A stretch of 64,000 bases of DNA. Origin: Thermomicrobiales bacterium (GTDB taxonomy: Bacteria > Chloroflexota > Chloroflexia > Thermomicrobiales > UBA6265). The stretch covers positions 355,322 through 419,321 of the forward strand of contig JAWKPJ010000001.1 of assembly GCA_041390745.1 (NCBI GenBank), in the 5' to 3' direction. A program made the translations under genes and the position numbers. The notes beneath the pieces are model-generated. The model ran no database searches. It was not told the origin of the DNA and was given only the letters and a program-made list of their open reading frames with translations. Of the stretch, positions 2,375 to 53,757 are shown one piece after another; the first letter of the stretch is position 1; each line of letters starts with the position of its first letter.

Positions 2375-4993
2375 ATGTCCAGCTTGAGTGCGCCTTATCG
2401 ACCCACCGTGCCTACGCCACTTACCTCGCTTGTCGGCCGCGAGCGCGAGCTCGATACGCTGACCCGATTGCTGAGTCAGGGCGATCCGCGTCTCCTGACC
2501 CTGACCGGCCCCGGCGGAGTTGGCAAGACCCGTCTGGCTATCGGCGTCGCGTCGTCCCTGGGCGACTCCTTCGCCGGCCGCATCTGGTTCGTGCCGCTCG
2601 CCGCTCTTGACGACCCCAGCCTCGTGCTGCCGGCTATCGCACAGGCTTTGGGTGTCCGCGCGAGCGGGCGGCATGTGCTGCTGGACGAAATCTCCCGCGC
2701 GCTTGGCAACGAGCCAGCCCTGCTGGTTCTGGACAACTTCGAGCAGATCATCGAGGCCGCGCCCATGGTGGTAGCGCTGCTTACGCGCTGCCCACGCCTG
2801 ACCTGCCTGGTCACCAGCCGCTCGGTCCTGCGCCTCTCCGGGGAGCATGTGTTCCCGGTGCCGGCGTTGCCGCTCCCGCCCGCCGCTCACGCATCGTCGC
2901 TCGCTCGGGCTGCCGCGTCGCCAGCCGTCCAGTTGTTCGTCCGGCGCGCGCAGGCGGCGCAACCCGAGTTTGCGCTTACTGAGGCGAATGCCGCTGACAT
3001 CGAAGCGATTTGCCGCAAGCTTGATGGCCTCCCGCTCGCCATCGAGTTGGCCGCTGCCCGCGTCCGCCACTTTGCGCCACCCGAGCTCCTGGCCCGGCTG
3101 AACGCCACCGGCGAAGCCGCCATGCTGCGCGTCCTGACCGGCGGCCCGCGTGATGCGCCCGCCCGGCAGCAGGCACTGCGCCACGCCATTTCGTGGAGCT
3201 ACGACCTACTCTCCCCGCAGGAACAGGCGCTCTTTCGCCGCCTCGCGGTCTTCGTGGGCGGCTTCACGCTCACCGCCGCGCAGGCTGTGGCAGCAGACCT
3301 CTTCGACGCTTCCCATGACGTGGCCGACGGCATTGCCTCGCTCCTGGACCAGAGCCTCATCCAATCCCTCGGGAGCACACCCGGCTGCACCCGGTTTGGC
3401 CTCCTGGAGACGATCCGCGAGTTCGCGCTCGAACGCCTGGCGACCGATCCCGAACGCCTGAATGCGCAGGATGCCCACGCCGCCTGGTTCGCGGCGCTTG
3501 CCCAGCGCGCCATCACGGCCCCCGCGTCCAACGAGCAGCCAGCCAGCCTCTCCCACCTGCAGGTGGAGCACGCCAATCTCCGCGCCGCGCTGACCCACGC
3601 CGAGCAGCAGGGCGACCTGACCCGCGGCCTCGGCATCGCAGCGTCGCTCTGGCGCTTCTGGCATCTGCACGGCCACTGGCGGGAGGGCTACACCTGGCTC
3701 GTCCGCCTGCTGGAGCAGGCTCCCACCGGGGACGGCATTGCCCCGGCCACCTGGGCCATGGCGCAGGCGGGCGCTGGCTGGCTCGCACACTACCAGAATG
3801 ACCACATCCGCGCGGAGCAGGCGCTGGCTCAGGCAGCCGAGGCGTATCAACGCCTCGGCCTCACGGCCGGACTCGTCGATGTGCGCAATTGCCAGTCACT
3901 CGTCGCGCAATCTCTGGGAGAGCATCGCCGCAGCGTCGAACACGGCGCAGCGGCTCTGGAGCTGGCCCGCACCCTGGACGACCCGGGCCTGATCGCCGAA
4001 TCTCTGAGCGGCCTCAGCCGGGCCACCCGCGAACTCGGTGACTACCCGCACGCCGCGCATCTGGCGCAGGAGATCCTGAGCCTCTGTCCGGACAGCGCCT
4101 CCCGCCTGCGAGCCGGGGCGCTCCTGACGCTGGGGGATATCGCGCGCGACCTCGGCGACAGCGCTGCCATCCGCGAGCATTGCACGACCGGAGTCGCTAT
4201 CTTCCGCGCCCTGGGCGAACCACTCGGCGAGGGGTTTGCGCTGCACAACCTGGCGGTTGCGGCGCTCATCGACGGCGATCTGCCGCGTGCGGCAGCCCTC
4301 TGCCAGGAGAGCCTCGCCATCTTCCGGCACGGTGATGTTCAGGGTGCAATCACGGAGGTGATGGCGACCTACGGCCCTGTCCTGCACGAATCAGGCGATC
4401 ACCTGGCCGCGCAGGCGACCTTGCTGGCGGCGTTGCGCCTTTCCCACCAGGTAGGCCCGCGCTGGGTGGCAGCCGCGGTACTGGAGGCCCTGGCGTGCCT
4501 GGACCTGGAACCTCGTGCCGCTGTCAGCCTGATCAGCCAGGCAAGCGCCATTCGCGCCCGCCTCGAGGTGCCCGTGCGCCCCAACTGGCAACCCAGACTT
4601 GATCGCGCGCTGGCACACCTTCAGGCGGCGCTCACGCCTGGCGGCTTTGCTGCCGCCTGGCGCCACGGGAAGCAGCTTGACCTGGGCAGTCTCGCGACGC
4701 AGGCCGACCTGACCAGCCTGGTGCGTCTCGCCGCCAGCCAGGATCATGCGGCTGCGGCCGCTCCCCGGGAGCCGGCTACGCCGGCACGGCGCGAGAACCC
4801 GCACGGCCTGACGGAGCGCGAAGTAGAAGTGCTGCGCCTGATAACCGGTGGCCACAGCAACCGCGAGATGGGTGAGCGGCTCTTCATTAGCCCGGCCACC
4901 GCTGCCCGGCACGTCGCCAATATCTACAACAAACTCGGCGTCGATTCACGCGCCCGCGCCACCGCCTTTGCCTTCCAGCACGGCCTCGCCTGA
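2375..4993 (+). CDS. LuxR-family STAND regulator (NB-ARC-like ATPase + TPR + C-terminal LuxR HTH; LAL-type)
   Basis: P-loop LTGPGGVGKTRLA, LLVLDNFEQ motif, long TPR-like helical region, and a C-terminal LuxR HTH (EREVEVLRLITGGHSNREMGERLFISPATAARHVANIYNKLGV). GGGAG RBS before ATG 2375. Confidence 0.85.
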   Translation: MSSLSAPYRPTVPTPLTSLVGRERELDTLTRLLSQGDPRLLTLTGPGGVGKTRLAIGVASSLGDSFAGRIWFVPLAALDDPSLVLPAIAQALGVRASGRHVLLDEISRALGNEPALLVLDNFEQIIEAAPMVVALLTRCPRLTCLVTSRSVLRLSGEHVFPVPALPLPPAAHASSLARAAASPAVQLFVRRAQAAQPEFALTEANAADIEAICRKLDGLPLAIELAAARVRHFAPPELLARLNATGEAAMLRVLTGGPRDAPARQQALRHAISWSYDLLSPQEQALFRRLAVFVGGFTLTAAQAVAADLFDASHDVADGIASLLDQSLIQSLGSTPGCTRFGLLETIREFALERLATDPERLNAQDAHAAWFAALAQRAITAPASNEQPASLSHLQVEHANLRAALTHAEQQGDLTRGLGIAASLWRFWHLHGHWREGYTWLVRLLEQAPTGDGIAPATWAMAQAGAGWLAHYQNDHIRAEQALAQAAEAYQRLGLTAGLVDVRNCQSLVAQSLGEHRRSVEHGAAALELARTLDDPGLIAESLSGLSRATRELGDYPHAAHLAQEILSLCPDSASRLRAGALLTLGDIARDLGDSAAIREHCTTGVAIFRALGEPLGEGFALHNLAVAALIDGDLPRAAALCQESLAIFRHGDVQGAITEVMATYGPVLHESGDHLAAQATLLAALRLSHQVGPRWVAAAVLEALACLDLEPRAAVSLISQASAIRARLEVPVRPNWQPRLDRALAHLQAALTPGGFAAAWRHGKQLDLGSLATQADLTSLVRLAASQDHAAAAAPREPATPARRENPHGLTEREVEVLRLITGGHSNREMGERLFISPATAARHVANIYNKLGVDSRARATAFAFQHGLA

Positions 4994-12757: not shown

Positions 12758-15271
12758 TCAAACTGGTCGCTCACGTGGGGGCTCCAACAGCCCCTGGGCC
12801 AGCGTGAGAACCGGCACGAGGCCCAGGTTTCGACCACGCTCTGCCGCAACCGCGAACTCCGTGCCGGGCATGGCCGCCCGCAGCGACTCGACCAGCGCGG
12901 CGCACTCTGCCGCGCCGAGCACACTGGCTGGGCCAACCACCTGCTCCCGCAAGGCGGCCGCCGCCGCAAGCAGCGTGACTGCCGAATCAGCTGCCCTGGT
13001 TGCCGCCGCGACTGCTGCGGCCACTTCAACACAGGCGGCCAGACCCTTCTGATCGCCACTACGCTGCCAGTGACGCAGACTCTCGCGCAGCCAGGCGCGC
13101 GCGGCGCCGAGGTCGCCCTGCTGCAGCGCCACGCGGGCCAGCACCTGCTGGGCGCCAGCCCGCGCGGACCACGCGACATGCCCCTCGGTCAGCCCCAGCG
13201 CCTGAGCAGCATGGCGCGCGGCCTCGTCCAGCTTGCCCTGCCAGCGTTGCGCCACCGCAATGTTGCAGAGGACAGCCGCCCGGTCGCGGGCAGCGGTATC
13301 CGCCGCTGCCGGTCGCAGCGCCGCTGCAAACCGCGCTTCCGCCAGGACAGCGTCGCCCCGGTCCAGCGCCACCATCCCAAGGACCGCGTGAGAGGCGAAG
13401 GCCGCCCAGGTTTCGTCGAACTCCTCGAAGACCTCCAGGGAGCGCGCTATCTCCGCCTCCGCTTCGGCCGCCCGGCCAAGTCCCTGTGCGATGTTCCCGC
13501 GCACGAACCCCACGAACGCGATCTCGCGCGCATCCCCGCAGGCTGCCGCCAACCGGCCAGCCTCCGCAACGTGGCGCCCGGCGCGCTCGAACTCCCCGAG
13601 GTTGGTCGCGATCCAGGCAGCGTGCCGCGCCAGCCGGCCGCGCAAAAGATCCTGCTCGACATGGCGGTCCAGCGCGACCTCGCACTGCGCCAAACCTTCA
13701 GCGCCGTAGCCACAGAGTGCCCAGAAACTCCCGAGCGTATCCAGCAGGCGCACGGCTCCCGGCAGATCATTGGCGTGCAACCAGCGCAACGCGGCTCTCA
13801 GGTTCGGCAGATCGCGCTCGAGGCGGCGCAGTCGCGCATCGAACCCCGCGTCTCGCCGCCAGAGGTGGGCCGTCTCGGCGGCGTGCTGCATTGCCGCCGC
13901 GTGCTCCGCCTCCACTCGCTCGCGCACCGGGCTGGCCTGGAGACGGCTGGCGGCAACCACGCGAATCGTTTCCAGCAGCCGATAGCGAGGCTCGTCCGCG
14001 GCAGCGTCCTCCCGCTGCACCAGGTTTCGCTGAATGAGCGTTCCCAGCAGCGCCAGCGCGTCTGCCGCTGCGCCACCCCGGCCACTGGCGCTTTCCGCTG
14101 CCGCCCAGATCTGCTGCGCGGCCTCCAGCGAAAAGCTGCCTTCAAACACGCCCACAGCGTGGAACATGCGCCGCTCTGCGGCAGACAGCAGGCCCTCGCT
14201 CCAGGCAACGACGTTATCGAGCGTCCGCTGGCGCTCCGGAAGATCGCGCAGCATGCCTGGCAATGGCGAGCGTGCCTCCAGCCGTCGCACGAGCATGGCT
14301 GGCGAGTGCGCCGCCGTGAGGGAGGCCGCCAACTCGAGAGCGAGCGGGAGCCCATCCAACTGCTGGCAAAGCCATGCCACGTCCTGTGCGTTGTGCTCCG
14401 TTACCTCGAAGCCAGGATCGACGGCCCGGGCGCGATCGGCAAACAGGCGCACCGCCGGGAAGATCAAGGCTTCCCCGGCGGATACAGCGGCAGGTTCCGG
14501 CGCCGGCAACGGCGCAACCGGCAGGCAGCGTTCGGCCCGCAACAGCAGAGGTTCGCGGCTGGTGACGAGCCAGGCGACAGCAGGCAGCAGCGCCGCGAGC
14601 TGCGCAATTACCGGAGCCGCATCAATCACTTGCTCGAAGTTGTCCAGCAGGAGACACAGCCGCTGCTCCAGCAAGCTCCGGGCAATCGTCTCCGGCGTCT
14701 GATGCCCGGGCGATGCTGCCCGGCCCAGCGCAGCCGCCACCGCCGGCAACACCTGTTGCGCGTCCTGCTCCGGCGCGAGATCGACAAACACCACCCCGTC
14801 CGGGAAGCGCTGCGTCACCGCGTCATCGTGCGCCAGGGCGAGCGCAAGCCGCGTCTTGCCGGACCCGCCCGGACCGGTCAGCGTGATGACGCCCGGTGTG
14901 GGCTCCAGGAGCCAGCCGCGCAGGCGCTCTGTCTCGTCAGCGCGGCCAAGGAGCGGCCCCGCAGGCAACGGCGCGCGGCTCACTGCGGGCATGACGGATG
15001 TCGCCCGTGAGGAACTGGCGGACGGCGACAAGGCACGCGCCGCCAACAGCAGCGCGGCGCGCTCCTCGGGAGTCACCGCCAGAGCCGCAAGCAGCCGCTG
15101 CACGGTCTCTCGCTGCGGCCGGCCCCGCGCCCCGCGCTCCAGGTCACTCAGCCCACGCACGCTCAGCCCGGCCCGCTCCGCCAGCTCGGCCTGCGTCAGG
15201 CCGCCGGCAAGGCGCCGGGCGCGGAGCAGGTCGCCGAAACTGCTGTCGAGGGGGAAGAGATCTGGCGGCAT
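12758..15271 (-). CDS. XRE-family HTH STAND regulator (N-terminal HTH_XRE + NB-ARC-like ATPase + TPR)
   Basis: N-terminal LRARRLAGGLTQAELAERAGLSVRGLSDLERG (XRE HTH). P-loop LTGPGGSGKTRLALALA, LLLDNFEQVIDAAP, long TPR/helical C-terminus. Paralogous core to the 2375-4993 gene. Confidence 0.85.
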   Translation of the reverse strand: MPPDLFPLDSSFGDLLRARRLAGGLTQAELAERAGLSVRGLSDLERGARGRPQRETVQRLLAALAVTPEERAALLLAARALSPSASSSRATSVMPAVSRAPLPAGPLLGRADETERLRGWLLEPTPGVITLTGPGGSGKTRLALALAHDDAVTQRFPDGVVFVDLAPEQDAQQVLPAVAAALGRAASPGHQTPETIARSLLEQRLCLLLDNFEQVIDAAPVIAQLAALLPAVAWLVTSREPLLLRAERCLPVAPLPAPEPAAVSAGEALIFPAVRLFADRARAVDPGFEVTEHNAQDVAWLCQQLDGLPLALELAASLTAAHSPAMLVRRLEARSPLPGMLRDLPERQRTLDNVVAWSEGLLSAAERRMFHAVGVFEGSFSLEAAQQIWAAAESASGRGGAAADALALLGTLIQRNLVQREDAAADEPRYRLLETIRVVAASRLQASPVRERVEAEHAAAMQHAAETAHLWRRDAGFDARLRRLERDLPNLRAALRWLHANDLPGAVRLLDTLGSFWALCGYGAEGLAQCEVALDRHVEQDLLRGRLARHAAWIATNLGEFERAGRHVAEAGRLAAACGDAREIAFVGFVRGNIAQGLGRAAEAEAEIARSLEVFEEFDETWAAFASHAVLGMVALDRGDAVLAEARFAAALRPAAADTAARDRAAVLCNIAVAQRWQGKLDEAARHAAQALGLTEGHVAWSARAGAQQVLARVALQQGDLGAARAWLRESLRHWQRSGDQKGLAACVEVAAAVAAATRAADSAVTLLAAAAALREQVVGPASVLGAAECAALVESLRAAMPGTEFAVAAERGRNLGLVPVLTLAQGLLEPPRERPV

Positions 15272-44087: not shown

Positions 44088-44786
44088 CTAAAGTCCCGGG
44101 CCGGCGCCGCCGGCGAGTTCAGCCAGACCCCACAGGTCTCGCCACAGGTAGTCAGGCTGCACTCGGCCAGGCGCTGCTTCCACTTTGCGGTTGATCCAGG
44201 CGGTTCGCATGCCCATCTCCTGCGCCGGGCCGATGTCGTACTTGTAGCCAAACGCCACATGCAGGATTTCGTCTGGCGCGACCCCGACCCGCTCGCACAG
44301 GCGCTCGAAGTTGTTGCGCGACGGCTTGTAGGAACCACACTGCTCCGCAGTCACCACGTCCCTGAACGGCACACCCATGTGCCTCAGGCTGTGAGCAATG
44401 AGGTCATCGTCCGTGTTGGAGAGGATCACCAGGTCCCACCCCTGCTGCCGCACCTGCTCCAGTGCGGGCCAGGTGTCCGGGAAGGGCTGCCACGAGCGCA
44501 TGGCGCGCGCCAGGTCCGCGCCATACTCCTCGCGCCAGGGATAGCCCCGCTCCGTCATCCACGCACGCAGACTGTCGGCCAGCACCGCCTTGTAGGTCAG
44601 GTAATCACCCTGGATGATGTCGAACTGGATCGCTTCCCAACGCTCGCGCAGCGTGTGGCCGTTTTCAGCCGGCTCGGGCTCGTGGCGCAGCGCCATGTCG
44701 TACAGGAAGTTGGCCAAACCGCCTTCCCAGTCAATGAGCGTCCCGAAACAATCAAAGGAAGCGACCCGGATCTGTGATGAACTCAC
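44088..44786 (-). CDS. Haloacid dehalogenase type II (HAD superfamily hydrolase)
   Basis: HAD motif I FDCFGTLID (Asp nucleophile), ...ILSNTD..., ...CGSYKP (Lys), ...HVAFGYKYDIGPAQEMGM. Size and motifs match L-2-haloacid dehalogenase-like enzymes. Confidence 0.8.
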   Translation of the reverse strand: MSSSQIRVASFDCFGTLIDWEGGLANFLYDMALRHEPEPAENGHTLRERWEAIQFDIIQGDYLTYKAVLADSLRAWMTERGYPWREEYGADLARAMRSWQPFPDTWPALEQVRQQGWDLVILSNTDDDLIAHSLRHMGVPFRDVVTAEQCGSYKPSRNNFERLCERVGVAPDEILHVAFGYKYDIGPAQEMGMRTAWINRKVEAAPGRVQPDYLWRDLWGLAELAGGAGPGL

Positions 44787-45656: not shown

Positions 45657-45834
45657 GCAACAAGCTCCTGATCGCCGTCCCGCATCCCGGGCCGTCTGCG
45701 CAAGACCACCAGGAATCGGGACTTTCAGCGTATGCTACGCCGCCGGAGGAACGGGCGATGATGGGTGTGCGTTGGAAGAAACGTTACATCGCAGCCGGAA
45801 GCCCTCCGGGGCCACAACAGGACGGGTCATATTC

Positions 45835-46662
45835 ATGCGGAACCGAGTCAAGCTGATCCAGCGGTTGCTGGGCCTGATCGTCACCGTCGCGCTTCTGTGC
45901 GCGGCGCTCCCGGCGCTCCAGGCCGCCGCCGCGCCTGCGCGAAGCGGCACGAGCCCGCGCCCGGTCATGCTCATGCAGCAGGATGCCACAGACGCGACCG
46001 CCGGCTCGGTTGGACAGGACGGCACCGTCAACGGGCAGCCGCGTGAGACGAACGACGCGCCAGCGGACACGCTCAACCCTGCTGCTCCCGGCCAGGTTCT
46101 GCTGCCACCCAGCGTGCCCGGTGTGCCCGGCAATGCTAATCCGGCGCTTGCTAACGGCATTTCCAGCACCCAGGAGGCCACATTTACCGCCATCGCGGAC
46201 ACGACCGTCTTCCTTTCGTCGCCAAACTCGCCCCAGACCGAGGAGAGCATCGCCTCCCTGGCTATGGGCGGTTCACAGAACGCGGTGGCCCTGATCAGCT
46301 TCTCGGTGGAGGGACTGGGCGACGCCGTGGTCCTCGGCGCACGCCTCTCATTCCAGGGCGCGGGCCTGAACGGCGGACCCGGCGGGAGCGTCGGCGTCAT
46401 TTATGGCTACGTGACGTCGGACGGCGCGACGGCAAACGATGTCCCGTCGTACGAGAACGCTCTCAATGTCCACGGCGCTCCGGCCTGGTTCGAGCGCGTC
46501 GAGCCCGCAGGCATCACCCAGGTTGACGTCACTGGCTCCATCTCCGGCGACGGTACGCTCACCTTCGTGCTGCCAGGCCAGCCCGAGCAATCGGCTGCCA
46601 TCTATTCTTTGGAGAGCGGCGTGCCGCCGCAGTTGATCCTGACCGTGGGCGTCCCCGCGTAG
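45835..46662 (+). CDS. Secreted hypothetical protein (possible DNRLRE-like carbohydrate-binding/beta-sandwich domain)
   Basis: Signal peptide MRNRVKLIQRLLGLIVTVALLCAALPALQAAAAPA. Low-complexity linker, then a beta-rich C-terminal domain (…ALISFSVEGLGDAVVLGARLSFQGAG…GTLTFVL). Confidence 0.55.
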   Translation: MRNRVKLIQRLLGLIVTVALLCAALPALQAAAAPARSGTSPRPVMLMQQDATDATAGSVGQDGTVNGQPRETNDAPADTLNPAAPGQVLLPPSVPGVPGNANPALANGISSTQEATFTAIADTTVFLSSPNSPQTEESIASLAMGGSQNAVALISFSVEGLGDAVVLGARLSFQGAGLNGGPGGSVGVIYGYVTSDGATANDVPSYENALNVHGAPAWFERVEPAGITQVDVTGSISGDGTLTFVLPGQPEQSAAIYSLESGVPPQLILTVGVPA

Positions 46663-47229
46663 CACGCAGCGCAATCCCCCTCTGCCCCCTCGTCCCGGAT
46701 GACCTGCCCGGGACGAGGGGCTCGTCGTTGGCGGAAACTGTGCGCCGGGAACAGCGCAGGCGCGCACCTGACGCACCTCAAGAACGCGGCCACCCAGGCC
46801 ATTGCTCGCGTGGCCGCGCCGGGCTGCCACCGGGGAGGATCGCATCGCATGAGCTCGCCTGCGGGCGCTCCTCACGGATTTCGCCCACGTTGCGAAGTGG
46901 GTACCTGCTGACTCTGGAGGCCGCCCTCGCCCTTGCCGTTGCCCAGCCAGGTGATTTCCGGCGTGAGTGAGTTCGCCAACCTCTCGGAAGCGATCGGCGC
47001 CAGCCGCACCAGGATCCTCTCGCCCATCGACCTGATCCGCCAGCAACTCGCTGCCATCGCCACGCCGAGCCTGCTACTCACCGCCTACGTCATGGTCCTG
47101 GCTGAGCAGGCCGTGGCTAGCGAAGGTCAGGCAGACGCCGCCGTCGCACGCTTCTGCGTCTCGTACGTGTCCCGCAAGCCAGGAACCATGGCCATGCTGT
47201 CTGGATGGTGTCGCCTGATGGCGTGGGTG

Positions 47230-48039
47230 TCATGGACTCGGGATCGGCTGGAGGATCTCCACCTTCGGACAGCCAGCGCGCAGCAGATCGCCGACCCGCG
47301 TCCCCCTGGAGGGCTCTGCATCGAACCGGGTCGCCACCCGCGCCACCGAGTCGCGCTCGTGCGCGTCACTGCCGGCAATACCTGGCTTTCCGAACTCTGC
47401 CGCGAGCTGCTGCGCCAGCAAATTGCAGACGCCTCGCCGTTTGCTGGAGCCGTTGAGTATCTCGATGCCGTCCAGTGCCCGGATGATCTCCAGCCACCAG
47501 GCTGTTTCCTCGTTCTCCCTGAGCCAGCGCACAAACTCTGCCATATCGGTCGTGCCGTGCTCCTCGGTAAACGTGTTGAGCCGCTTGCGCAGTGGCGACC
47601 AGTGATCCATAGGGTGAGCCCAGACAATGACGCCCCCGGCCAGGTGGACCTGCCGGACAAGATCGCCAATCTCGAAATCCAGCAGCCTGCCGACCCGGGA
47701 CGCCAGGCGCTGCGCGGGCAACGACGGAGCATCCCTGATCTCTTGCTCAAGGGCCTTCAGCCGCCCGAGGACCTGATCGCGCTCCAGCGACCACACGACC
47801 GTGTTCGGCACGTCGTACACCAGAAAGTGCCCAAGGCCCGTGTTGAACTCCGCGCCGCCCAGGATAACGAAGTCGTACCGCTCCATCATCTCGTGCAGCT
47901 CCGTTTCAGGCGTGAAGCGACCGTGGTCAGTGACGCAGATTGCGTCCAGTCCGGCCTTTCTCGCCTCCTTCACGGCGTCGGTAAAGGAGAGGCTGCTGTC
48001 CTTCGACCGGCGCGTATGGAGATGCATGTCAATCAGCAC
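47230..48039 (-). CDS. PHP-domain metal-dependent phosphoesterase
   Basis: MLIDMHLHTRRS...AICVTDHG...GGAEF...VWAHP...GSDAHE, the classic PHP His/Asp metal-ligand motifs. Confidence 0.85.
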   Translation of the reverse strand: MLIDMHLHTRRSKDSSLSFTDAVKEARKAGLDAICVTDHGRFTPETELHEMMERYDFVILGGAEFNTGLGHFLVYDVPNTVVWSLERDQVLGRLKALEQEIRDAPSLPAQRLASRVGRLLDFEIGDLVRQVHLAGGVIVWAHPMDHWSPLRKRLNTFTEEHGTTDMAEFVRWLRENEETAWWLEIIRALDGIEILNGSSKRRGVCNLLAQQLAAEFGKPGIAGSDAHERDSVARVATRFDAEPSRGTRVGDLLRAGCPKVEILQPIPSP

Positions 48040-48376
48040 GCAATCACCTGCTTGCCTCCTGCATCGTCAGGCGATGAACGGTCGAAAAACACTCCGGGAC
48101 TGCCTCACGACGCGGACGTCGGGCCGGCTCCAGCGAAGCTGACAATGAAGCCCTTGTCGGCGGGCGGAGACGGGTTGATCCGTTCTAACTCCACCGGAAT
48201 CAACAGAGCGGTAAGGCACGGCAAAGCGCGGGTGAGGTTGGTGGATCGGGCTGGCGTTCCACGACGAAGTAGTGGGCTGTTCCGCATCGCGACGAGGATA
48301 AGATCGGTCCCCGGCGCCGGATGGCCATCCGCCATGGTGAAGGTAACGCTCAGGCTGGTATCGGACGCACCGGTCA

Positions 48377-48562
48377 TCAACCGCTCTGCATTGGCGCGTG
48401 GGCGCGGTCCGCCGTGTTGATGAGCGCTCCAAGCAGCATGATCGTGGCGACCAGCGCCAGCGGCACGGTGTGGTGCTCCTTGAGTTCAGCCAGCAGGAAC
48501 CTGCGCGGGCCCAGGCTCAACCACACAACGTTGATCACCAGCGCGATCGCAACAACCTGCAT
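48377..48562 (-). CDS. Hypothetical small two-TM membrane protein (61 aa)
   Basis: MQVVAIALVINVVWLSLGP....VPLALVATIMLLGALIN; starts just after stop codons in its frame, overlapping the 3' end of the upstream membrane protein gene. Confidence 0.3.
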   Translation of the reverse strand: MQVVAIALVINVVWLSLGPRRFLLAELKEHHTVPLALVATIMLLGALINTADRAHAPMQSG

Positions 48563-49148
48563 CAGGACTCACCACCTCGCTCAGCGCCGAGGTGGTCTGG
48601 ATGAGCGCGCGGTTCGAACCGGCGGTATTGGCGGCCGACACCAGCGGCAGCACGACCAACCCGTTGATCACCAGGGCGCCAACCCGCCCCAGGCGATCCA
48701 CCTGCCGCCGCAACCACGATCGCGCCTGCGGCAGGCGAGCGGTCGTAACGCGGTCCACCAGGAACAGCAGCAGCAGGATTGCCGGGTAGGCCAGCAGGCT
48801 CTGCACCGCGTGAACCGCTTGCAGCGCGACGTAGGGCGGCGGGAGGTCGAGCGCAACCGTGTCAATCGACATGCGACCGAAGTAAGCCTCGGTGTAGACC
48901 GAGCCTACCAGGTAGACGCCGGTAGAGGTAACCACCGCGATAATGACTGACTCGATGAGCTTGCGGCCTCCAGCCAGCTTGTCGGCCAGCTTGACGGCCA
49001 GGACCTCAGAGGCCAGACCAGCCTTCGCGGCATCTTCTGCCGCAGGCGGCAGTACCCGCTGCTCCTGGCCCTGCCCTACCCCGTGAATTGCGTCAGCTAT
49101 CGAGGCATTGACAGGCGGCGGTGGCCCGGCCAGGGTACGAACCGCCAT
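48486..49148 (-). CDS. Hypothetical membrane protein (220 aa), translationally coupled to the upstream putative PRTase gene
   Basis: ATG overlaps the upstream stop (TGATG). Predicted TM helices (VIIAVVTSTGVYLVGSV; ILLLLFLVDRV; ALVINGLVVLPLV). No recognisable domain. Confidence 0.45.
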   Translation of the reverse strand: MAVRTLAGPPPPVNASIADAIHGVGQGQEQRVLPPAAEDAAKAGLASEVLAVKLADKLAGGRKLIESVIIAVVTSTGVYLVGSVYTEAYFGRMSIDTVALDLPPPYVALQAVHAVQSLLAYPAILLLLFLVDRVTTARLPQARSWLRRQVDRLGRVGALVINGLVVLPLVSAANTAGSNRALIQTTSALSEVVSPDAGCCDRAGDQRCVVEPGPAQVPAG

Positions 49149-50206
49149 CAGTGCCGCACGGCCTGGGCTATCGAAGCGGCCTCGATGTGGCCGCTGGCGT
49201 CGAGCACCCCCCGCTCCCGCAGCACCGACTCGTAAACCTGCAGTGAAGGCGCAAATTGCCCCTGGTAGCGGCGGCGGTAGTCGTTGCTTGCGGCCGCGCA
49301 GTAGATCTTCAGGATCGCCGCCGTTGGAAGATCCGCCAGAAACGCGGGAAGTTGGGCGGTGATTGACGGATCGAGCGTGATCTTCAACAGTTTCTGGACC
49401 ACCGCAAAGCTCCCCCGCCTCAGCATCGGGGCGACGCTCTCCAGGCTGCCATCGATGACCGCGTTGTTCAGCTGAAACTCGATCATGCCATCGGTTGCGG
49501 CAACCGTCGGCGGATCGACCCTGACCGCAAAGAGCGAGAATATCTCGGCCACGTGGACCCTGCGCAACCGTGGCCTCGTCCGGTTGGCCGAGTACCCCGA
49601 GTTGAACAGGTCGTCCAGAAAAATCACACTCTGGCTCCGAAACGACTCGGGCACGATGGTAACCACGCTACCCGCGCCATCTACCGGGGCACTCGCCCGT
49701 TCCCGCACGGTCCTGCGGGCGTAGCCCAGCAGGCTCTCCGTGAGCCGCGTCTGCTGCGCATTGATGACTGGCGGCAAACCCATCGTTGCCAGGCCGATAT
49801 TGAGATAGTCTGCCGTGGTTCGCGCCAGCAAGTTTGATGCAGACGGGACGTTGAACATAGCTGTTGAGACGATGTAGGTGAAGTGCTCACTGGCTGCCGC
49901 CCGCCGGCAGAAAGCCAGGAAAAACTCGTGACGCAGCGCGGTGGCCGCGAGATGACCGGCGAAGAACGTGACCGCGTCGAGGTCACCGTACTTCATGCGG
50001 CTGAACGCCTCGACAACAGGCTGTAGCGAGGCGCCGGTGCGCGCCTCGACGTAAGCACCGCGCTGATCGACGGCAATCTCGAACGCGACCGCGGCTTCCC
50101 GGGTGAAGTCGATCTCTTCCAGAGCTGCGAACTTCTCGCCCGGCAAGATCCCCTGGTCAAGGGGTCGCGCCAATGTCGCGGCTGCCCCACTTGATGATGT
50201 GCTCAT
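49148..50206 (-). CDS. Protein with divergent type I phosphoribosyltransferase (PRTase) motif, paralog B
   Basis: Divergent PRPP-binding motif VIFLDDLFNSGYS at about residue 205; PRTase assignment rests on this motif alone. About 150-aa C-terminal extension. Paralogous along its length to 50409-51482. GGAGGTTCCCG-ATG start context. Confidence 0.5.
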   Translation of the reverse strand: MSTSSSGAAATLARPLDQGILPGEKFAALEEIDFTREAAVAFEIAVDQRGAYVEARTGASLQPVVEAFSRMKYGDLDAVTFFAGHLAATALRHEFFLAFCRRAAASEHFTYIVSTAMFNVPSASNLLARTTADYLNIGLATMGLPPVINAQQTRLTESLLGYARRTVRERASAPVDGAGSVVTIVPESFRSQSVIFLDDLFNSGYSANRTRPRLRRVHVAEIFSLFAVRVDPPTVAATDGMIEFQLNNAVIDGSLESVAPMLRRGSFAVVQKLLKITLDPSITAQLPAFLADLPTAAILKIYCAAASNDYRRRYQGQFAPSLQVYESVLRERGVLDASGHIEAASIAQAVRH

Positions 50207-50301
50207 CGGGAACCTCCGGGGTGAGACGATCTGTACGCTGGCCAGGGCGAAGCACGATCGCCAGGTTGAGGTATACGGCGGTGGCTGTGTGATGGACCCC
50301 G

Positions 50302-50339
50302 TAGCACCTACGGGGTTCCCTACGGGTTTTCTCCGGACG
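50302..50339 (-). promoter_or_regulatory. Conserved CCCGTAG-repeat leader element upstream of putative PRTase paralog B (putative structured 5'-UTR / operator)
   Basis: + strand ccccgtagcacctacggggttccctacgggttttctcc. As RNA (sense): GAAAACCCGUAGGGAACCCCGUAGGUGCUACGGGG. Near-identical architecture upstream of paralog A. Confidence 0.3.
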
Positions 50340-50408
50340 GATCAGGTGCGCGGCGAACCAGTATGGCGCTGGCGCAGGTTTATGGGATAACCAATCATGG
50401 GGTGGCTC

Positions 50409-51482
50409 TTACCGGTAGAGCGCGGCGAGATCACGTGACGTTCCGGTGATGTGGCCCGCAGCATCGAGCACGCCCCGCTCCTGCAAGACCATTTCCAGCG
50501 CGAGGAGTGACGGGAGGTAGCGGCCCTGACTTCTCCGGGAGAAGCCGTCACTTGCCGCTGCCGCATAAAGTTTCAGGATCGCCGGCGTCTGAATCCCCGC
50601 GAGAAACGCAGGGAGTTCGTTCGTATGCAGCGGGTCGAGCAGGGCCCTTACCAGCTTCTGCACAACCGCGAAGTGCCCACCCCTCAGCAGTGGGGCGAAG
50701 CTTTGCAGCGTCTCCGACACGAAGTAGTCATTCAGGCGATCTTCTATCTGGCCCTGCGAGGCCCCAACGGCCTGCGGATCCATCCTGGCTGCCAGGAGAT
50801 AGAAGCTGGAGGCGACCCCAACATTTTGCAGGCGATGCTTTGCCCGCCAGATCGAGTACCCGGTGCTGAAAAGATCATCGAGGTAGATCACACATTCATT
50901 GTGAAAGTACGCGGGAACGATGGTCACCCCGCGCCCGGCCGCCAGATTGTCCCTTCGCTCACGCACCGCCGTGCTCTCGTAGCCGAGGGAGTTGTCTGAC
51001 AGGCGCGTGAGCTCGGTCACCACGACCGGGGCCAACTCTTGCCTGGTCAGCAAGATGTTCAGGTGCGCGGCGGTCGCCCTGAGCAGCAGGTTCGAGGCAG
51101 AAGGCACGTTAAAAACTGCCGCGGTGGTTATGTAGACGACGCGTTTGGCGGTCGCCGCATCCCGGACGTGCGCCAGGAATCGTTCAGACTGCATCGCCCG
51201 GTCCGCGAGTTGCCTCGCAAAGAAGGACACCGCGTCCAGGTCGCCATACTTCATCCGGCTGTACTGTTCGATGATGACTGGATCAGGCAGCCCGGCCCGC
51301 GCATCAACGAAATCGCCACGGGCGTTCACGCCGATCTCGAACGCAACCACCGCGTTCGCCGCGATGGCGCCGAAGATGGCGGCGGCTTCCTGGGCAAAGT
51401 CAACCCCGTCCAGCGAGCTCGCGCGGATCGACCACCGGTCCGTCGGCGTCCCTCCGTTCTCCAGAATCGCCAACCTGGTCAT
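50409..51482 (-). CDS. Protein with divergent type I phosphoribosyltransferase (PRTase) motif, paralog A
   Basis: Divergent motif VIYLDDLFSTGYS; PRTase assignment rests on this motif alone. Same domain layout as paralog B (…YSRMKYGDLDAVSFFA…NVPSASNLL…GHFAVVQKL…). GGAGGTTCCGC-ATG start at 51482 preferred over the 51500 extension. Confidence 0.5.
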   Translation of the reverse strand: MTRLAILENGGTPTDRWSIRASSLDGVDFAQEAAAIFGAIAANAVVAFEIGVNARGDFVDARAGLPDPVIIEQYSRMKYGDLDAVSFFARQLADRAMQSERFLAHVRDAATAKRVVYITTAAVFNVPSASNLLLRATAAHLNILLTRQELAPVVVTELTRLSDNSLGYESTAVRERRDNLAAGRGVTIVPAYFHNECVIYLDDLFSTGYSIWRAKHRLQNVGVASSFYLLAARMDPQAVGASQGQIEDRLNDYFVSETLQSFAPLLRGGHFAVVQKLVRALLDPLHTNELPAFLAGIQTPAILKLYAAAASDGFSRRSQGRYLPSLLALEMVLQERGVLDAAGHITGTSRDLAALYR

Positions 51483-51559
51483 GCGGAACCTCCACAGCAT
51501 CCGACCATGGCCTTCGCTTGTTGCTGGGGTGAGCGTATGGGCGTCAGGACGCGTCGCAG

Positions 51560-51596
51560 CCCGTAAGGTCTACGGGGTTTTCTACGGGCTTCTTCC
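51560..51596 (-). promoter_or_regulatory. Conserved CCCGTAG-repeat leader element upstream of putative PRTase paralog A
   Basis: + strand cccgtaaggtctacggggttttctacgggcttcttcc. As RNA (sense): GAAGAAGCCCGUAGAAAACCCCGUAGACCUUACGGG. Shares GAAAACCC(C)GUAG...CCCCGUAG..loop..UACGGG with the paralog B leader. Confidence 0.3.
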
Positions 51597-52431
51597 AGCG
51601 CGCCGGATATCAGGCACGACATGCGTTCACGACGACAAGACGCTGTGGGATCATGCGCGGGCGCTGGCCGGTAGGCACACGCGGAGGGACATCATGCCCC
51701 GGAACGTGGATGACTACGCTATTGACCTTGAGCAGACGCCGGAGTGCGCCCGCCGGATCGCGATTATCCTGGGCCTCTTCGTGCAGATCGAGCACGGCCT
51801 CGTGCCGATCCTGAGCTGGACCGCTGGTATGACCATGGATCAGGCGCAGGTGGCGCTGGACCTTCAGAAGCTGAAAGGTCGAAAAATGGGTTCCTTCACC
51901 GAATGTGTGACGGAGTCTCTCCCGGCTGGCTGCGAGACGTCGCGGCGGGCAATGCCTTTGGCCCGGCCGCAATAACGGCCAACATCATCCGCAGCACCCA
52001 GGCACATGTCTCGTACAACTCGGTGGAAGCCTCCGGGCAGGAGGGGTTGCACGTCGCAGTCTTTGCGGATGATTTGCTTTGCGCAACGCAGGTCGAGGTC
52101 GCCACGGTCGTACCCCTCGACGCCGCCATTCGCTGCCTGGCACCCTCGATCGTAGCCATGCGTAACTCCGCCGAGGCCCGGGCCGCCAACGCCCCGGTCA
52201 ACAGGCAGGAGATCGCAGACCTCGCCGCCAGCGCGCCACGGCCCCTCCGGCTGACCCCCTGACTGGAGCCAGTGACCCGGCGAATCGGGGGCAGCCCGAT
52301 CAACGGCGGCCAACGTGCGCGGCGGCGCCGCAATTGACGCCCGTTGGCCCGCAGCATATCCTTGCCCGGTCTGATCATTTCAGATAGCGGTCATCTGTGC
52401 CATTGGCGCCACAGGTCACTTCAATGAAGAG

Positions 52432-53757
52432 GTGTGTATGTTCACGCTCAACACCCGTATGTCGCCCAGTCCCTCCGCAGCCGGGTACCGGCTCAGCCGC
52501 CGGGGATTGCTGAAGGGCGCGGCCGGCGTCACGGCTGCTGGTCTCAGCCTGCCCGCCTGGTTGGCCAGCGCCCAGATGGAGCTGGGAACCGCTACCGGCG
52601 AGCTCACGGTCGGCTCGAACTACTCGAACGAATTGCCGAAGCAGGCGTTGCACGCCGCTATCGACGCCTTTCCGAACAAGAACGTCACCATCGCCCTGAA
52701 CGAGGTCGATCACAATACCTTCCAGGAGAACATCACCACCTATCTGCAAAACCCCGATGACGTCATCCCCTGGTTCGCCGGTTACCGTATGCAGTTCTTC
52801 GCCGCGCAGGGGCTGCTCGGCGCGATCAACGATGTCTGGGACGCGGGCCTGAACGACATCCAGTCGGAAGGCTTCAAGCTCGCCTCAACCGGGCAGGATG
52901 GCCAGCTCTACTTTGTTCCCTGGACCTACTACTGCTGGGGCATCCACTACAAGCCAAGCGTGTTTGCGGAGAACGGCTGGACACCGCCCACCACCATGGA
53001 AGAACTTGCCGCCCTGGGCGAGGCCATGCAGGGCGCGGGGATCGTACCCTTCGCCAGCGGCAACGATGGCCGTTGGCCCGCAATGGGCACCTTCGATCAA
53101 CTCAACTTCCGCCTCAACGGCTACCAGTTCCACATGGACCTGATGGCTGGCCGCGAGAGCTGGACCGACGAACGGGTGAAGAACGTCTTTACCGCGTGGG
53201 AGGCCCTGCTGCCGCTCCACCAGGAGAACCCGAACGGCCGCACCTGGGAGGAGGCCGCATCCGCAGTCGTCAACGGCGAAGCCGCGATGATGACCATCGG
53301 CAACTTTATCGGCGAGGTCTTCCCCGATGGCGACACGTCCGACCTCGATTTCTTCCCCTGGCCGGAAATGAACCCGGAGTACGGCACTGAGACAATCGAA
53401 GCCCCGATTGACGGCTGGATGATGGCCGCCAACCCGAAGAACCCCGAAGCCGCCAAGGAGTTGCTCTACCACTTCGGCACCGCCGATGCACAGGAAGCGT
53501 TCCTGACGGTAAACCCAAGCGTGATCGGGGCGGCAACCGACATCGACCACTCCATCTTCACCCCGCTGCAGATCAAGGGTCTGGAGGCGGTTGCGGCGGC
53601 CAGGTCGGTGACGCAATTCCTCGACCGCGACACGAGCCCGGAGTTCGCCTCGAACGTTGCCGGTCAGGCTTTTGCCGACTTTCTGGCCGACCCCTCCAGT
53701 ATTGATGGCATTCTGGAAGACATGCAGGCCCAGGCCGAGGTGATCTTCGCCGAGTAG
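52432..53757 (+). CDS. Sugar ABC transporter substrate-binding protein (CUT1, SBP family 1), Tat signal
   Basis: SRRGLLKGAAGVTAAGLSLPAWLASAQ signal, then a typical family-1 extracellular solute-binding domain. Start could be an internal Met (52438/52459). Confidence 0.85.
   Translation: MCMFTLNTRMSPSPSAAGYRLSRRGLLKGAAGVTAAGLSLPAWLASAQMELGTATGELTVGSNYSNELPKQALHAAIDAFPNKNVTIALNEVDHNTFQENITTYLQNPDDVIPWFAGYRMQFFAAQGLLGAINDVWDAGLNDIQSEGFKLASTGQDGQLYFVPWTYYCWGIHYKPSVFAENGWTPPTTMEELAALGEAMQGAGIVPFASGNDGRWPAMGTFDQLNFRLNGYQFHMDLMAGRESWTDERVKNVFTAWEALLPLHQENPNGRTWEEAASAVVNGEAAMMTIGNFIGEVFPDGDTSDLDFFPWPEMNPEYGTETIEAPIDGWMMAANPKNPEAAKELLYHFGTADAQEAFLTVNPSVIGAATDIDHSIFTPLQIKGLEAVAAARSVTQFLDRDTSPEFASNVAGQAFADFLADPSSIDGILEDMQAQAEVIFAE

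Follow-up and report, generated by a model that had tools for sequence, protein, structure and literature searches.

Tandem PRTase_3 genes beside a PHP phosphoesterase gene in Thermomicrobiales: most likely a Ter-less derivative of the Ter-linked phosphoribosyltransferase-phosphatase module

Two paralogous genes for ComF-like phosphoribosyltransferases (PRTases) stand next to a phosphoesterase gene in a Thermomicrobiales bacterium (Chloroflexota; assembly GCA_041390745.1), and this locus is the subject of the present analysis. It lies within a 64,000-nucleotide stretch of contig JAWKPJ010000001.1 (positions 355,322 to 419,321 of the forward strand), here called the window, to which coordinates refer unless another locus is named and whose GC content is about 66%. 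The minus strand carries paralog A (50409-51482), paralog B (49148-50206), a membrane-protein gene (48105-49148) and a gene for a PHP-family metal-dependent phosphoesterase (47230-48039), with an operator and promoter-like element upstream of A (51532-51588) and another upstream of B (50270-50326). The locus is most likely a Ter-less, lineage-specific derivative of the PRTase_3-plus-phosphatase module of the Ter systems. An earlier sequence-only reading had proposed a candidate module for a nucleoside-like metabolite at this place, and much of its chemical logic is retained here while several of its details are revised.

The two paralogs are arranged head-to-tail, as that reading had placed them, and share 50% identity over 345 residues (E 2e-106), far above chance. 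Paralog A has 357 amino acids (aa) and is 100% identical to a protein (P0001) that NCBI names 'phosphoribosyltransferase family protein'; paralog B has 352 aa and is the first gene of a B-membrane-PHP unit. In the profile search, which had been proposed as a check, A matched Pfam PF15610 (PRTase_3, 'PRTase ComF-like') with 54.2 bits over residues 71-314, the gathering cutoff being 28.7 bits. B scored 27.3 bits, marginally under this cutoff, and PF15610.13 is precomputed for P0040, a protein identical to B. A and B belong to this PRTase family, and the orthologs in the B clade are 70-82% identical to B. The phosphoribosyl pyrophosphate (PRPP) loop reads VIYLDDLFSTGYS in A and VIFLDDLFNSGYS in B, both conforming to the type I PRTase pattern (four hydrophobic residues, D-D, x3-[ST]-G-x-[ST]), which bears out the PRPP-binding motif originally recognized. 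The motif SRMKYGDLDAV is likewise present in both paralogs, but the N-terminal region around it can no longer be called uncharacterised, as YSRMKYGD lies inside the PF15610 domain and is a family signature in all subtypes. What had been described as a C-terminal extension also belongs largely to the PF15610 domain itself; the helical C-terminal region of A (residues 236-357, about 120 aa) is common to all subtypes and found no match among solved structures.

Structure prediction, performed for A, yielded a type I PRTase fold in an AlphaFold2 model with a predicted local distance difference test score (pLDDT) of 82.7 and a predicted template modelling score (pTM) of 0.83. The order of elements is that of type I PRTases: a strand, the loop NVPSASN, a second strand ending in the invariant R160, a conserved disordered loop (residues 163-183) and then the strand VIYLDD with the PRPP loop. 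The disorder of residues 163-183 in the model is what would be expected of the mobile catalytic loop of PRTases. The best structural match of the model is Helicobacter pylori ComFC (PDB 7p0h), at 14% sequence identity, and Foldseek also returned HGPRT and PyrR at E of about 5e-5. When the PDB was searched by sequence, with A or with the profile, the PRPP loop alone was matched (OPRT, HGPRT; E about 1). Across 22 sequences from both clades the residues R76, K78, D81, P127, S128, S130, T159, R160, Y168, D202, D203 and G208 are invariant. Because these key residues are kept in both clades, neither A nor B looks like a dead enzyme, and their motifs predict that both transfer phosphoribosyl from PRPP.

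Neighbour-joining makes the A and B clades each other's sisters, and the pair is in turn sister to the d1 proteins of other phyla, d1 being one of the PRTase_3 subtypes described below. Since both clades hold orthologs from many genomes, the duplication is old and lineage-specific; a recent duplication of the two paralogs, or their concerted evolution, as had been suggested, is contradicted by this tree. The shared start context from which it had been deduced is indeed there (GGAGGTTCCGCATG for A and GGAGGTTCCCGATG for B), but it is no duplication signal, because GGAGGTT is a Shine-Dalgarno context that is conserved in the orthologs too.

The paralogs also share a regulatory element. The pattern CCCGTAG-N5-CCCGTAG-N3-YTACGGG occurs exactly twice in the window, where no copy is expected by chance, and both copies are on the minus strand. 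Upstream of A the two CCCGTAG boxes are at 51588-51582 and 51576-51570, followed by an inverted TTACGGG (51566-51560), a 22-nt spacer and a -10-like TACGCT (51537-51532); in the 202-nt spacer between A and B the corresponding boxes are at 50326-50320 and 50314-50308, followed by an inverted CTACGGG (50304-50298), again 22 nt and a -10-like TATACC (50275-50270). Twelve instances of this operator in nine loci align gap-free, and each is followed by a non-conserved 22-nt spacer and a TAnnnT box. Besides the window, the loci with the three-box element are those numbered here L001, L002, L008, L009, L021, L023 and L028, and the element precedes PRTase_3 genes that stand alone as well; with the pattern used, L005/L007, L026 and L031 showed no copy. 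A scan for consensus sigma-70 promoters and terminators gave nothing exceeding shuffled controls. An RNA-structure reading of the element was discarded, since its arms are conserved without compensatory changes and lie at a fixed 22 nt from the -10-like box; in an Rfam scan covering 46500-52500, with E values up to 5 allowed, there were two chance-level matches and none to the CCCGTAG element. We read the element as a putative activator site overlapping the -35 position. On this reading A would have one promoter and the B-membrane-PHP unit another, both under one regulator. In L002 and L023 the neighbouring gene divergent from A encodes a MalT/LAL-like protein with NB-ARC and GerE domains, which in L021 is encoded upstream, and such a protein is considered a candidate operator binder. 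The window holds two paralogs (35-46% identity) of this NB-ARC/AAA_22 plus GerE regulator, at about 2375-4990 (+) and about 13350-14980 (-), which is 37-48 kb away.

The stop codon of B overlaps the next ATG as TGATG at 49148, in agreement with the translational coupling to a membrane-protein gene that had been noticed before. The sequence-only reading had, however, seen two membrane proteins and a 340-bp gap downstream of B where there is a single gene, 48105-49148 (-), broken by five indels. This follows from tblastn and from DNA alignment, end to end, with four intact orthologs; when intact the gene would encode about 340 aa with five transmembrane (TM) segments and a C-terminal beta domain. 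Its fragments in the window are open reading frames (ORFs) of 220 aa (48486-49148), 61 aa (48377-48562) and 91 aa (48105-48380), all on the minus strand, while an intact single ORF of 315-348 aa fills the space between B and the PHP gene in L001 (12307-13344), L002 (10302-11249), L009 and L023. The indels (+T at 48567, +CA at 48400-48399, +C at 48276, a 5-nt deletion after 48227 and +C at 48197) all fall within 460 bp (the region 48105-48567) and compensate in two groups, +1/+2 and +1/-5/+1. Their lengths add up to zero, and the reading frame at the original stop codon (48105-48107) is the proper one again. As in the intact part, differences in the frame-shifted part are in excess at third codon positions, and the damage is therefore either very recent, as in pseudogenisation, or an assembly artefact; since nine syntenic neighbour genes match the lengths of their orthologs, it is also local. 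The membrane-gene ortholog in L021 is split too (282 + 66 aa).

The membrane-protein family comprises 55 proteins, usually of 290-348 aa, in Thermomicrobiales/Chloroflexia only, and has no Pfam family; nor did the protein of the window match a Pfam or NCBIfam family above threshold. An AlphaFold2 model of an intact member (pLDDT 77.7) shows five long helices in the membrane and, at the C-terminus, a beta domain of five strands, which by the positive-inside rule suggests an N-in topology with the beta domain outside the cytoplasm. The sole Pfam match was DUF475 (E 0.021, 15 bits, cutoff 27), obtained with the truncated ORF and absent for the intact ortholog, and hhalign against a DUF475/TerC protein gave a probability of 2.4%. 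No profile or fold match linked the protein to any known transporter or exporter family, TerC/DUF475 included. The proposal that membrane proteins act here as exporters is accordingly not upheld: there is one disrupted gene, without a family, and it has relatives with no PRTase nearby. These relatives (L022 4084-5016 and L025 3275-4174; 41-49% identity) lack both PRTase and PHP genes around them and adjoin an MmeI-type restriction-modification enzyme or patatin and NYN genes.

The last gene of the unit, 47230-48039 (-), encodes a PHP-type phosphoesterase of 269 aa, as had been claimed; the Pfam scores are 38.9 bits for PHP (cutoff 26.4) and 43.7 bits for PHP_C (cutoff 21.3). The NCBIfam model for CehA/McbA metallohydrolases gave 70.9 bits, below its cutoff of 80, and the nearest solved structure is a PHP phosphoesterase (9etk_A, E 1e-3). 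Six orthologs all keep the metal ligands H6, H8, H39, E64, H142, D225 and H227 (HxH, H, E, H, DxH). In L003 the PHP gene carries a frameshift. Weak matches of the window protein to RNase RNM, to a 3',5'-bisphosphate nucleotidase and to the PHP domains of PolIII/PolX raise the question of whether the locus could instead be a nucleic-acid system of the ComFC/RqlH kind, in which PRTase_3 proteins bind or modify single-stranded DNA or RNA, the PHP protein is a nuclease or an end-processing phosphoesterase and the membrane protein a tether, in the service of DNA uptake, repair or restriction. That ComFC is the best structural match of A and that A shares with ComFC-like PRTases an invariant arginine, R160, following the second strand (PMC5512222) would fit such a system. 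However, the nuclease-type matches of the PHP protein are confined to the N-terminal HxH motif and lie far under the cutoffs, and a ComFC-type zinc finger is lacking in A, as there is no cysteine in its residues 1-80 (nor in the N-terminus of B). Moreover, no helicase, DprA or Com genes are found nearby, and the phosphatases of the sister operons in other phyla are of the Cof or HAD_2 small-molecule type, not nucleases. We consider a nucleic-acid function quite unlikely.

The gene neighbourhood in relatives gives a mixed answer to the check that had been suggested: the PRTase genes do co-occur with the membrane-protein and PHP genes, but genes of the A or B type also stand alone. The latter observation, together with the PyrR regulators among the Foldseek matches and the flanking genes common to most Thermomicrobiales examples, could be taken to mean that the genes are unrelated neighbours, A and B being unusual salvage proteins or PyrR-like regulators and the PHP and membrane-protein genes sharing a transcript by synteny. 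This appears very unlikely. L021 retains the order B-membrane-PHP while its upstream flanks differ, translational coupling ties B to the membrane-protein gene, and all close relatives found of the PHP protein (at least 67% identity) follow the membrane-protein gene of the operon, in two flanking contexts. A phosphatase partner of PRTase_3 furthermore recurs in six phyla, in three or four non-homologous types.

An exhaustive hidden Markov model search for the family among 1.84 billion proteins gave 319 cluster representatives. Of two word-indexed protein searches, the second, with the alignment as query, added one protein (P0201) to the result of the first. About a quarter of the best 150 family representatives have 2-4 fused domain copies per chain. 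Three subtypes can be told apart by the loop after the first strand and by the PRPP loop, which are NVPSASNLL and DD[IV]YISGT in d1, AYGxVPTAA and DDLxATGSHE in d2, and GSRNVESASN and GDDVRITGATA in d3. The distant homologs, in five other phyla, are two or three tandem or fused PRTase_3 copies beside a HAD phosphatase. The protein P0054 is a d1-d2-d3 fusion followed by a Cof-type HAD, and in L010 (Pseudomonadales) the order is PRTase_3 d1, d2, HAD, d3, a layout repeated in L012 (Collierbacteria) with a variant subtype in the first position; in L014 (Flexivirga) and L018 (Saccharimonadales) a HAD gene is followed by two PRTase_3 genes. The HAD beside the PRTases is of the Cof type in L010, L012, L013 and L020 and of the HAD_2 type in L014-L019 and L041, and no HAD was seen beside the PRTase pair of L011. 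The logic of a PRTase paired with a phosphatase, put forward in the sequence-only reading, is thus well founded: most PRTase_3 operons examined outside Thermomicrobiales have an adjacent phosphatase. On four or more occasions a phosphomonoesterase has been recruited to the side of PRTase_3 genes, out of two superfamilies (two HAD and two PHP subfamilies), and this repeated recruitment is the main support for a 5'-phosphate intermediate.

In 2012 Anantharaman, Iyer and Aravind reportedly predicted a biosynthetic module of the Ter systems consisting of ComF-like PRTases and HAD phosphatases. Genes for TerD, TerC/DUF475 or vWA-TerF are present in L010-L019 and L041, and in L014 and L016-L019 a DUF475/TerC membrane protein is encoded within the PRTase_3 operon itself. 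An annotated Hymenobacter plasmid carries genes for a kinase, a PP2C, two vWA and three TerD proteins, followed by HAD and PRTase. The link to the Ter systems is therefore stronger than the analogy first proposed: as homologs in other phyla sit with HAD and with TerD, TerC/DUF475 or vWA-TerF, the Thermomicrobiales locus is homologous to these modules and not just analogous. In a paper that also summarises the module, Ter-linked PRTases and HADs have been read as makers of nucleoside or nucleotide derivatives (PMC7824862). Two bacteria of the Candidate Phyla Radiation (CPR), those of L012 (3393-12393; Candidatus Collierbacteria) and of L018 (Saccharimonadales), keep a full cluster of vWA-TerF, TerD, three PRTases and HAD, with genes for a P-type ATPase and an EamA transporter after it. 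To find this cluster preserved in such reduced, very small genomes is surprising.

The Ter genes themselves are absent from the locus. Neither the 64-kb window nor the Thermomicrobiales loci examined had a tblastn match to TerD, DUF475 or vWA-TerF, none of TerD, TerB, TerC/DUF475 and vWA-TerF was seen among the scanned neighbour genes, and at E 1e-4 tblastn of Ter-type HADs gave nothing in the window. The closest gene for a HAD (44088-44786) is 2.4 kb off, beyond an AraC gene and a divergent gene. The Ter module is marked by a HAD gene adjacent to the PRTase genes, and the phosphoesterase that adjoins them here is of the PHP + PHP_C type. Of the PRTase_3 subtypes, the locus has d1-like copies only, duplicated within the lineage, with d2 and d3 missing.

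A PHP protein accompanies PRTase_3 in one further setting. Enterobacterial plasmids carry an operon of radical SAM, PHP, PRTase_3 (d3-type, hhalign 99.6%) and glycosyltransferase-like genes, represented by L040 (6894-10694) on the Citrobacter freundii plasmid NZ_CP056645.1, with similar matches in Enterobacter and Raoultella plasmids. Its PHP protein is of a different subfamily and only remotely similar to that of the window. The operon is flanked by a WYL-JukA-PDC-M40B unit and by AbpA/AbpB and DUF262 genes, that is, by a defence island. None of its four proteins had a significant match in PADLOC 2.0, and operons of this type may constitute an undescribed nucleoside-modifying defence system. 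One may then ask if the Thermomicrobiales locus too is a conflict or abortive-infection module, with the same chemistry as in the reading preferred below and a defence role assigned to it: the PRTases would make a toxic ribotide or drain PRPP in the manner of ShosT, the PHP protein would be the antidote or tuner and the membrane protein the sensor or effector, against phages or in stress-induced suicide. In addition to the d3-type relative in the plasmid island, the relatives of the membrane protein next to the MmeI-type enzyme or to patatin and NYN genes, and the association of Ter systems with phage resistance (PMC7824862), speak for such a role. Against it, none of the five products had a significant match among the defence-system models of PADLOC; the match of ShosT to a paralog (E 0.05, 11.4 bits) covers 40 residues of the PRPP loop alone, so that membership in ShosTA did not hold, and PDC-M49A matched the N-terminus of the PHP protein only. 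A DprA-like antitoxin is not present, tblastn of A against a phage collection returned nothing, and the surroundings are ordinary chromosomal genes (sugar ABC transporter, AraC, HAD), syntenic across genomes, not a variable island. A role in defence is possible, yet rather unlikely.

The reading we prefer, which we would place at an even balance between right and wrong, is the following and draws on sequence and gene order. A and B, alone or as a hetero-oligomer, would use PRPP on a base-like nucleophile and yield a riboside 5'-monophosphate, from which the PHP phosphoesterase, co-transcribed with B, would strip the phosphate to leave a nucleoside-like product. The chemical logic would thus run from an activated pentose phosphate and a base, over a 5'-phosphate intermediate, to a dephosphorylated riboside, which may serve as a signal or antimetabolite. 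The 5-TM protein coupled to B would be a membrane partner (a receptor, anchor or effector) more probably than a classical exporter, and in this genome it appears to be inactivated or mis-assembled. Each of A and B would be under an activator-type promoter; having the same three-box operator, they would be co-regulated by one regulator. The catalysis, the order of reactions, the product, the hetero-oligomer and the biological role are all proposed in this sense, as extrapolations from the conserved features: family membership, fold, motif conservation, gene order, recurrent phosphatase partnership and operator.

Several observations weigh against this reading. Genes of the A or B type are alone in L005/L007 and L028, B occurs without A in L021, and in L009 A is reduced to a remnant of 73 aa. 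Contig L027 opens with a B-type gene that has no membrane-protein or PHP genes after it; an A-type gene that ends contig L026, from the same sample, may pair with it. The solo and B-only genes imply that neither a heteromer nor the PHP step is obligatory. The Thermomicrobiales loci are partly syntenic, which weakens the argument from gene order inside the group. Furthermore, to our knowledge no member of PF15610 has been characterised biochemically, and PHP enzymes are known as nucleases and small-molecule phosphatases alike. ComFC is described as a DNA-handling protein without demonstrated transferase activity (PMC9005727). Finally, the membrane-protein gene is broken here, and in this organism the system may lack full function.

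A bolder variant, rather improbable in our estimate, would make the locus a self-contained, Ter-independent signalling or toxin system based on a small molecule. An activator acting through the CCCGTAG operator would switch on the two PRTases, the PHP enzyme would trim their product to a novel riboside, and this would be sensed or executed by a new class of 5-TM protein, the plasmid operon of the L040 type being a cousin engaged in conflict. If true, the locus would be the simplest entry point to the nucleoside-like metabolite of the Ter systems.

As to the surroundings, the product of 45772-46662 (+) in the window has 296 aa and a hydrophobic segment at its N-terminus, and belongs to no Pfam family. 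It is 83% identical to a 301-aa product of L001, and its gene holds the same place in relatives, with PHP on one side and AraC/HAD on the other.

Since the 2012 prediction, what the Ter-linked PRTases and phosphatases produce has been an open question. With two PRTases, one phosphatase and one membrane protein, and with no TerD, TerC, ATP-grasp or accessory genes, the Thermomicrobiales form is so stripped down that reconstitution in vitro and identification of the metabolite should be simpler. The four types of phosphatase found beside PRTase_3 provide the strongest comparative argument so far for a 5'-phosphate intermediate, and the conserved operator offers a way to the regulator and to the condition of induction.

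Compared with named systems, the window proteins differ from ComFC of H. pylori (PDB 7p0h; PMC9005727) in having neither the zinc-finger N-terminus nor a ComFA helicase partner, and in the extra helical C-terminal region of about 120 aa in A (236-357). From ShosT (PDB 8zvb) and RqlH's PRTase domain (PMC4670107) they are set apart by the absence of a DprA-like partner and of a helicase fusion. The Ter module stands closer. It differs from the window and the Thermomicrobiales loci examined in possessing TerD, TerC/DUF475, vWA-TerF, kinase/PP2C or HAD partners, and its phosphatase is a HAD whereas that of the window is PHP + PHP_C. The window further has lineage-duplicated d1-like PRTases without d2 and d3, an orphan 5-TM partner with no detectable relation to TerC, and an operator of its own. 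What the two have in common is the PF15610 family itself, two or three paralogous or fused PRTases, the pairing with a phosphomonoesterase and, in some cases, a membrane protein, and the Thermomicrobiales locus is most likely a reduced form of this computationally predicted Ter-type module.

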